This document shows positions 12,058-12,432 of a stretch of 64,000 nt of DNA, piece by piece. The DNA lies in contig OZ240213.1 in assembly GCA_965197555.1 (NCBI GenBank), positions 1,194,220 to 1,258,219 of the forward strand, written 5' to 3'. The notes below the pieces were generated by a model. It saw only the letters and a list, made by a program, of their open reading frames with translations. It was not told the origin of the DNA and did no database searches. Positions within the stretch are counted from its first letter, which is position 1. Every line of letters starts with the position of its first letter. Position numbers and translations under genes: made by a program. This DNA is from Dehalococcoidia bacterium. GTDB taxonomy: Bacteria > Chloroflexota > Dehalococcoidia > Lucifugimonadales > UBA3495.

Positions 12058-12432
12058 TCATAGCCTTAGACGCATCGCGTCGGGATCCATAGTGATTTCT
12101 TCATTTCCAGGACCCAACTGAATCTTCCATCGTTGCATCATATCCACGCCTATAATCATCTCCTCCCCAAGCTCCTCCACCACAAATACAGTGAAGAAGA
12201 CGGGTATATCTCCGACGGATATGTCTAAATTGACTGTCTCCTCCACCTGCAGAGTGCCTTTCCCGTCGGCCAACGTGAAACGAAGAGGTGTGGGTGTGCG
12301 GCCAATGTTACTGACCCCCTGAGCCAGGTCCTTACGGAGGAATGTGGCACCAGCTCCTGTATCATACAGTGCCTGGACCGTAGTTCTGCCTTGATCACCG
12401 ATAATTTGTGTCTCTCGTCGGATAATGCCCAA
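12058..12432 (-). CDS. retropepsin-like (clan AA) aspartic protease, 124 aa, embedded between atpG and atpD
   Basis: Catalytic D-T-G-A ([11 protein letters not shown]) and a C-terminal hydrophobic-hydrophobic-Gly segment (EMIIGVDMM), at single-domain retropepsin size. TTG start lies 6 nt after the atpG stop. The stop lies 28 nt before the atpD start. Confidence 0.7.

Follow-up and report, generated by a model that had tools for sequence, protein, structure and literature searches.

The 64,000-nucleotide stretch analysed here (hereafter the window), from a Dehalococcoidia bacterium, holds on its minus strand a complete F-type ATP synthase operon with an additional gene, encoding a predicted retropepsin-like aspartic protease, in its midst. 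The order is atpI-like, atpB, atpE, atpF, atpH, atpA, atpG, the protease gene, atpD and atpC (Pfam names of the operon genes were taken from an orthologous operon). The protease coding sequence, of 124 codons plus a stop, spans 12058..12432, with a TTG start at 12432-12430 and a TGA stop at 12060-12058. It is preceded by atpG, for F1 gamma (12439..13302; the orthologue is Pfam ATP-synt), and followed by atpD, for F1 beta (10629..12029); these genes and the features given below all lie on the minus strand. The atpG stop codon (12439-12441) is separated from the protease TTG by the 6-nt spacer AAATAA (12433..12438), and the protease stop from the first atpD ATG at 12029 by 28 nt (12030..12057), within which the atpD ribosome-binding site GGGAG stands at 12033-12037; this second spacer would be 31 nt long if the next atpD ATG, which is used by relatives, were the true start. 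Two motifs mark the protease: the catalytic Asp loop D-T-G-A at codons 24-27 (12352..12363) and the second psi-loop motif I-I-G at codons 93-95 (12148..12156), which is followed by the helix VDMMQRW. An earlier note, made from the letters of this DNA, had described the position of the open reading frame (ORF), its two motifs, the 6-nt and 28-nt spacings and the operon order, and all of these descriptive claims were borne out.

We assigned the protease start to the TTG because orthologues start at the aligned position with the same N-terminus; the codon aligns with ATG or GTG starts of proteins that open MG(I/L)I. At one orthologous locus (L011, 3998-4000), ACG stands at the codon aligned with the start of all orthologues, and this gene has either an unusual start or a downstream GTG start (115 aa, as called by the Joint Genome Institute) that would leave out the N-terminal strand. 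A Shine-Dalgarno-like GGAAGG (12443..12448) lies 10 nt 5' of the protease start, within the last atpG codons (..L-E-G-stop). It is kept as GGAAGG or GGAGGG inside the atpG end at orthologous loci, where 3-12 nt separate the atpG stop from the protease start. In a consensus scan of the coding strand, no promoter-like or terminator-like site was seen at either protease junction, in agreement with the earlier note. Because the gene shows no promoter or terminator of its own, it would most likely be transcribed by read-through of the atp operon. Its translation would most likely be coupled to atpG via terminating ribosomes, with an output lower than that of gamma or beta because the ribosome-binding site sits in the last atpG codons, the TTG start is weak and codon usage is poor. 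A comparison of codon usage with the neighbours, which the note had proposed, marked the protease as atypical: its G+C content at third codon positions (GC3) is 0.53 versus 0.64-0.74 in the atp genes of the window, and its index of codon adaptation (CAI-like) falls 4 standard deviations under the window mean. GC3 was also under that of the flanks in 27 of 27 protease copies, with a mean difference of 0.13. The protease is single-copy in the source genome, and the direct or inverted repeats flanking the insert in the window were short chance matches alone.

The profile, structure and fold searches agree that the product is a single-domain, retropepsin-like protein of clan AA, as had been claimed. 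Its best Pfam match was PF13975 (E = 1.1e-8; 36.0 bits, cut-off 28.2), and it also passed the gathering cut-offs of PF12384 (29.4 bits, cut-off 21.2), PF13650 (29.7 bits, cut-off 24.3) and PF09668 (26.6 bits, cut-off 26.0), making four models; PF00077 RVP stayed under its cut-off (16.4 versus 20.7 bits). A sequence search of the PDB with the protease returned the Ty3 protease and several Ddi1 RVP domains. We obtained an AlphaFold2 model from an alignment of 22 orthologues (predicted local distance difference test, pLDDT, 83; predicted template modelling score, pTM, 0.75). The top Foldseek matches to this model, at probability 1.00, were Ddi1 RVP and retroviral proteases (Ddi1 E = 2.8e-6, template modelling score, TM, 0.63-0.70), and further matches comprised the XMRV, HIV-1, EIAV and HTLV proteases, bacterial RloA peptidases and Lpg0085. 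The two NCBIfam models that the note had put forward, TIGR03698 (clan_AA_DTGF) and TIGR02281 (clan_AA_DTGA), scored 15.0 and 13.4 bits, so far under their cut-offs of 57.35 and 57.95 that the protease is a member of neither subfamily. A PHROGs search with the window protein matched nothing, and no signal peptide, hydrophobic segment or membrane segment is visible in its sequence. Every one of the 22 orthologues has D24, I94, G95, D97, M98 and D116-P117, and T25, G26, A27 and G28 are each shared by 90% or more of them. A homing-endonuclease-like reading of the gene, suggested by an intergenic insert of patchy distribution that leaves scars, was rejected, since a nuclease domain is absent, aspartic-protease models alone match and the fold is retropepsin-like.

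Judged by the modelled fold, the protein makes up a single protomer of a retropepsin-type protease and would be active only as a dimer. Two chains would pair via their N- and C-terminal strands, bringing their Asp24 residues together in a shared active site beneath two flaps; where tandem paralogues occur, heterodimers would also be possible.

Set against known systems, this protein combines a known fold with an uncharacterised solo subfamily and an undescribed genomic habit. The half-barrel fold, the D-T-G-A loop and the protomer size are common to it and to the Ddi1 RVP, retroviral and Ty3 retropepsins (MEROPS clan AA, A2), and its I-I-G and helix align to the IIGLD helix region of the Ddi1 and Ty3 proteases. 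However, identity to Ddi1 and the retropepsins is only 13-23%, and the window protein is bacterial, stand-alone and operon-encoded, with neither ubiquitin-like and UBA domains nor a polyprotein. Whereas the Ddi1 family is recognised by an RVP domain flanked by ubiquitin-like and UBA domains, the window protein is a protease domain only. RimB, RloA/RloA2 and APRc are likewise bacterial single-domain clan AA proteases, and prokaryotic single-domain clan AA peptidases have been catalogued as a class (PMC2642776). RimB belongs to the rimABK ribosome-modification system (PMC11957791), RloA is secreted or periplasmic (PMC12239564; RloA/RloA2, PDB 9g58 and 9g59) and the Rickettsia APRc is membrane-associated (PMC4140852). 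The window protein differs from all of these in having no signal peptide and no such partners, and its structural similarity to them is weak (TM about 0.5).

The gene recurs in relatives at the identical site. In a profile search of 203 genomes of the same family of Dehalococcoidia, 44 gave strong protease matches at the atpG/atpD junction, from six genera only, so that the check for presence in relatives that the note had proposed came out positive. The protease was absent from 158 of the 203, including sisters with ~99% identical gamma and beta. A scan of species representatives returned 23 loci, all from metagenome-assembled genomes named 'Dehalococcoidia bacterium' and each in the order atpA-atpG-protease-atpD-atpC, and nothing comparable was found outside the same family among 401 genomes of the order. 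Across loci, identity is 38-59% for the protease, 88-91% for beta and 70-81% for gamma. The pairwise ratio of nonsynonymous to synonymous substitution rates (dN/dS) of the protease is 0.03-0.2, the same range as for atpG. Judged by its sequence, the ORF is a real gene under purifying selection.

Presence of the gene changes over short distances. In non-carriers, which were drawn from the genera of the carriers, the atpG-atpD gap is 8-124 nt. On a DNA tree of atpG plus atpD, carriers alternate with non-carriers even among branches of less than 0.01, where for example L017 has the protease and L050 and L053 do not. This tree holds at least 11 presence/absence changes, a count that describes the sample rather than a rate. 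Some non-carriers retain pieces of the gene: in L038 the first ~22 protease codons are fused to the last three codons ('LRA') and the stop, a scar consistent with deletion between two ALY-encoding repeats, and in L036, L040 and L051 the 3' end of the protease and the spacer to atpD remain. L038, too, has kept an equivalent of that spacer. Absence of the protease is secondary in several non-carriers.

Other copies are altered in place. The L033 protease is frameshifted, and in L171 (51-425), whose allele is the closest to that of the window, D24H, T25R, G95D and R101P are present. The L171 and window proteases differ by 11 nonsynonymous changes and 1 synonymous change, whereas the two atpD genes are ~98% identical with mostly synonymous differences; the L171 protease is an allele either in decay or under changed function. 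Tandem protease duplicates were found in at least nine genomes, and L029 has a 60-nt duplicated junction of atpG end and protease start, which we read as the scar of unequal crossing-over. In L022 copy 1 (3499-3933), P0009, P0017 and the second half of P0005, D-P-H/E replaces D-T-G. This sub-group is made up of first-position tandem copies with a C-terminal extension of ~20 aa, which may be inactive partner subunits of heterodimers.

Alleles at the junction also turn over. L015 and L022, from one genus, are 93-99% identical at the nucleotide level in atpA, atpG and atpD, yet only ~50% identical from the atpG stop to the atpD start. Protease and atp trees disagree, and genus monophyly was rejected by approximately unbiased (AU) tests (p = 0.009 for g23 and 5e-6 for g21), in which the groups had been defined with the tree already in view. 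Either old paralogues have been differentially lost or alleles have been swapped by recombination in the conserved flanks, and both are birth-and-death dynamics. We propose that a single capture at atpG|atpD, in an ancestor of several genera, would have been followed by repeated deletion, tandem duplication and replacement by divergent alleles. The conserved flanks probably serve as recombination anchors; here the pattern is observed and the mechanism is one that we infer.

The ATP synthase itself does not vary with the protease. Subunit lengths, termini and architecture are identical in carriers and non-carriers, including the N-terminal extension of subunit a, and the basic, Pro/Gly/Ser-rich epsilon tail is the same in both. 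The earlier note had tied the protease to these two features; since non-carriers show both of them unchanged, we rejected maturation of either one by the protease. Repeated loss, decay and the unchanged subunits of non-carriers exclude an obligatory role in maturing or assembling the ATP synthase. The protease is dispensable.

The protease is not the only insert in these operons. AtpI/UncI is a known extra gene linked to F-type ATP synthase. A junction-length table of the atp operons brought out further inserts, all co-oriented with the operon. At atpD|atpC, L012 (5850-7393), L013 (5995-7529) and L023 (5858-7416) carry a pair of phosphoribosyltransferase (PRTase) and DprA-like SLOG genes that match PsyrT/PsyrA and ShosA (E = 4.6e-43), and L025 (5849-7537) carries an NsnB-like AAA_15/AAA_21 ATPase (407 aa, E = 4.7e-47) with a 154-aa partner. 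A HicA/HicB toxin-antitoxin pair lies at atpA|atpG in L055 (809-1472), and PaREP1-family genes occupy the same junction in L011 (2733-3116) and L057 (2921-3322). The L055, L011 and L057 genomes belong to the same order as the window genome. Orphan ORFs or inserts of ~0.6 kb were seen at atpA|atpG and atpH|atpA (L044, L024 and L025). L025 has inserts at three junctions: besides the ATPase and its partner, it holds the protease twice at atpG|atpD and ~600 nt of inserted sequence at atpH|atpA (483-1091). An essential and highly conserved operon acts here as a landing site into which passenger cassettes insert, some of them recognised as toxin-antitoxin or anti-phage modules. In the literature we found no description of a protease gene in an atp operon, as the note had said of accessory proteases in F1Fo operons, nor of defence cassettes inside atp operons.

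Most relatives of the protease live elsewhere. We searched 1.84 billion representatives exhaustively by profile and took the family counts from that search (a k-mer homologue search gave 4 proteins only): 1959 relatives were returned, 225 of them with E <= 1e-10 and most of them stand-alone and 120-130 aa long. This wider family strongly conserves its active-site motifs, and genomic contexts outside the atp clade are diverse; among 80 metagenome loci, none was atp-linked. In L077 (1471-2266), from a small-genome Dehalococcoidia, two tandem related proteases lie between rplU (L21) and rpmA (L27). Between a FabK-like (NMO) gene and fabD, a related protease is found with gaps of 10-30 nt in L129-L135, L117, L118 and L143, metagenome contigs in which it stands at about 3001-3372 where the flanks are full, and in L075 and L142 related copies adjoin cysS. 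No conserved small partner ORF emerged: 34 of 75 copies have an upstream ORF of 50-130 aa, and these are mutually unrelated barring same-contig duplicates. The 77-aa ORF upstream of the L060 copy gave a sub-threshold MqsA-like match only. What emerges is an uncharacterised subfamily of solo, predicted cytosolic, HIV-protease-like proteins of ~125 aa that nest between conserved housekeeping genes (atp, L21/L27, fab and cysS).

In Firmicutes, the slot between rplU and rpmA holds Prp, an L27-specific cysteine protease, which shows that a dedicated protease can be encoded amid the genes of the operon it targets. The L27 of L077 starts MAHKKGGGS, without an N-terminal propeptide, and we therefore rejected the L077 proteases as a replacement for Prp.

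Two further sets of relatives connect the family to phages and to a defence candidate. In L172 (6001-6927; P0098) and in P0101, P0102, P0109 and P0141, a retropepsin-like domain (E about 1e-18 to the family profile) replaces the N-terminal protease part of the Mu-type gpI protein, and the C-terminal scaffold (PF10123 at ~141-330, phrog_328) is kept. The gene order there is that of a Mu-like head module: terminase, Portal_Mu, Mu F, the fusion and the Mu gpT capsid gene. The window protein differs from these fusions in having no scaffold and in lying outside a prophage. If confirmed, the fusions would represent an aspartic protease class in tailed-phage capsid maturation, and they suggest a concrete substrate class. 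The second set concerns PADLOC, whose candidate PDC-M08B was matched by 21 of 31 family members (best E = 2.5e-7). Gene B of PDC-M08 is a homologue of about 127 aa, and an equivalent of gene A is absent at the window locus, where no additional gene lies between atpG and atpD. Our literature search on PDC-M08 found nothing.

On balance we think it probable, if not by a wide measure, that the window gene would encode an active, solo, dimeric protease, that the gene rides in the operon as an exchangeable passenger cassette and is expressed by read-through, and that the protease probably has a conflict-type role. The company of toxin-antitoxin and defence cassettes, the dynamics of the gene and its phage and PADLOC relatives point to such a role, be it in defence, in addiction or in hampering the maturation of phage proteins, as likelier than action on F1Fo. 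The conflict-type role, which we infer, is the weakest step of this proposal.

Several observations weigh against this proposal. The dimerisation and activity that it supposes are read from the fold, and expression from the operon position. The low GC3 of the protease could simply be weak codon selection on a lowly translated gene. While under purifying selection, the protease has stayed at a single junction in six genera, for longer than is typical of defence genes, and its neighbourhood shows no partner gene, sensor domain or mobility gene. A scan of IMG/VR viral contigs yielded no stand-alone relatives. PDC-M08 is an unvalidated two-gene candidate, and the window protein itself matches PDC-M08B weakly (E = 0.004). 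What speaks most strongly for a tie to ATP synthase is a sister clade in a distant lineage (P0010, P0154, P0155 and P0156; gamma 52% identical), in which the protease lies 2-3 nt upstream of atpG in the arrangements atpA-RidA-thioesterase-protease-atpG and protease-atpG-orphans-atpD-orphan-atpC. This clade neighbours the atpG|atpD clade in the family tree, with a support of 88 in the Shimodaira-Hasegawa-like approximate likelihood ratio test (SH-aLRT), and a gene on both sides of atpG across a deep divergence is a classical sign of functional coupling. The argument is weakened because the same operons hold obviously unrelated passengers.

In a second lineage (L062, 544-1796; L081, 3-703; L080, 95-3660), RidA, a 4HBT thioesterase and the protease were seen between atpA and atpG, and orphan ORFs of 90-124 aa stand at atpG|atpD and atpD|atpC.

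The sister clade is one of the points that would fit a dedicated, non-essential accessory of the ATP synthase, together with the exact atpG/atpD position in 44 genomes, the translational coupling to atpG and the purifying selection on the protease. Such a factor might clear mis-assembled gamma or beta, trim the epsilon tail, make a regulatory cleavage under energy stress or bind F1 without cutting it. Atp23, the mitochondrial metalloprotease that processes Atp6, shows that a protease can act on a subunit of ATP synthase, but neither Atp23 nor Prp is homologous to the window protease, and the flanking atp products have no evident propeptide. We consider an accessory of this kind unlikely. The protease has been lost repeatedly without change in near-identical gamma and beta or in any subunit architecture, and the nearest strain (L171) no longer has the catalytic Asp. 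Protease alleles are ~50% divergent while gamma and beta are ~99% identical, and the protease is therefore not tracking a conserved partner. Moreover, the operons in question hold unrelated RidA, thioesterase, HicAB and PsyrTA-like passengers, and most family members lie outside atp operons.

For ATP synthase biology the outcome is mostly negative, and annotation of the gene as a subunit or assembly factor of F1Fo would be unwarranted. Of the two alternatives in the earlier note, insertion into a highly expressed operon is favoured over processing or assembly of a subunit, on the basis of near-identical (99%) gamma and beta without the gene and of the same protease family in unrelated housekeeping operons. 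Its account of the fold and of the tight nesting stands, and conservation in related Dehalococcoidia supports it.

The recurrence of the family in several highly expressed housekeeping operons, the active-site motifs conserved across the 225 closer representatives and the lack of a partner gene would also suit a general cytosolic housekeeping or regulatory protease, comparable to RimB acting on a ribosomal protein or Ddi1 on stalled proteins, whose level would track growth via the operon. We regard this as quite unlikely, as it fails to predict the patchiness, the deletion scars, the tandem and degenerate copies, the allele replacement and the decay in L171.

The proposal of an exchangeable cassette with a conflict-type role can be drawn more sharply, with the atp junctions as a hot spot for defence and toxin-antitoxin genes and the protease as a single-gene conflict effector. 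As a host-kept relative of an aspartic head-maturation protease of phages, it would then cleave phage capsid or scaffold proteins, or host targets, wrongly during infection, and its alleles would recombine via the flanks. In so specific a form the idea is distinctly improbable. Very improbable indeed is a selfish or neutral relic, kept by the difficulty of a clean deletion from an essential operon or by flank recombination: patchiness, scars, the L171 decay, the L033 frameshift, the degenerate L022 copy and an atypical composition would fit it, but dN/dS lies at 0.03-0.2, both the length of 124 aa and the catalytic residues have been retained in six genera and in the wider family, and clean deletions do occur, so that difficulty of deletion does not explain retention.

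The conserved atp flanks would allow cassette exchange between species, for which we found no description in atp operons. In the window, the atpA-atpG spacer (13303-13472), in which neither an ORF nor a protease remnant was detected, is 170 nt long versus 30-126 nt in most relatives.

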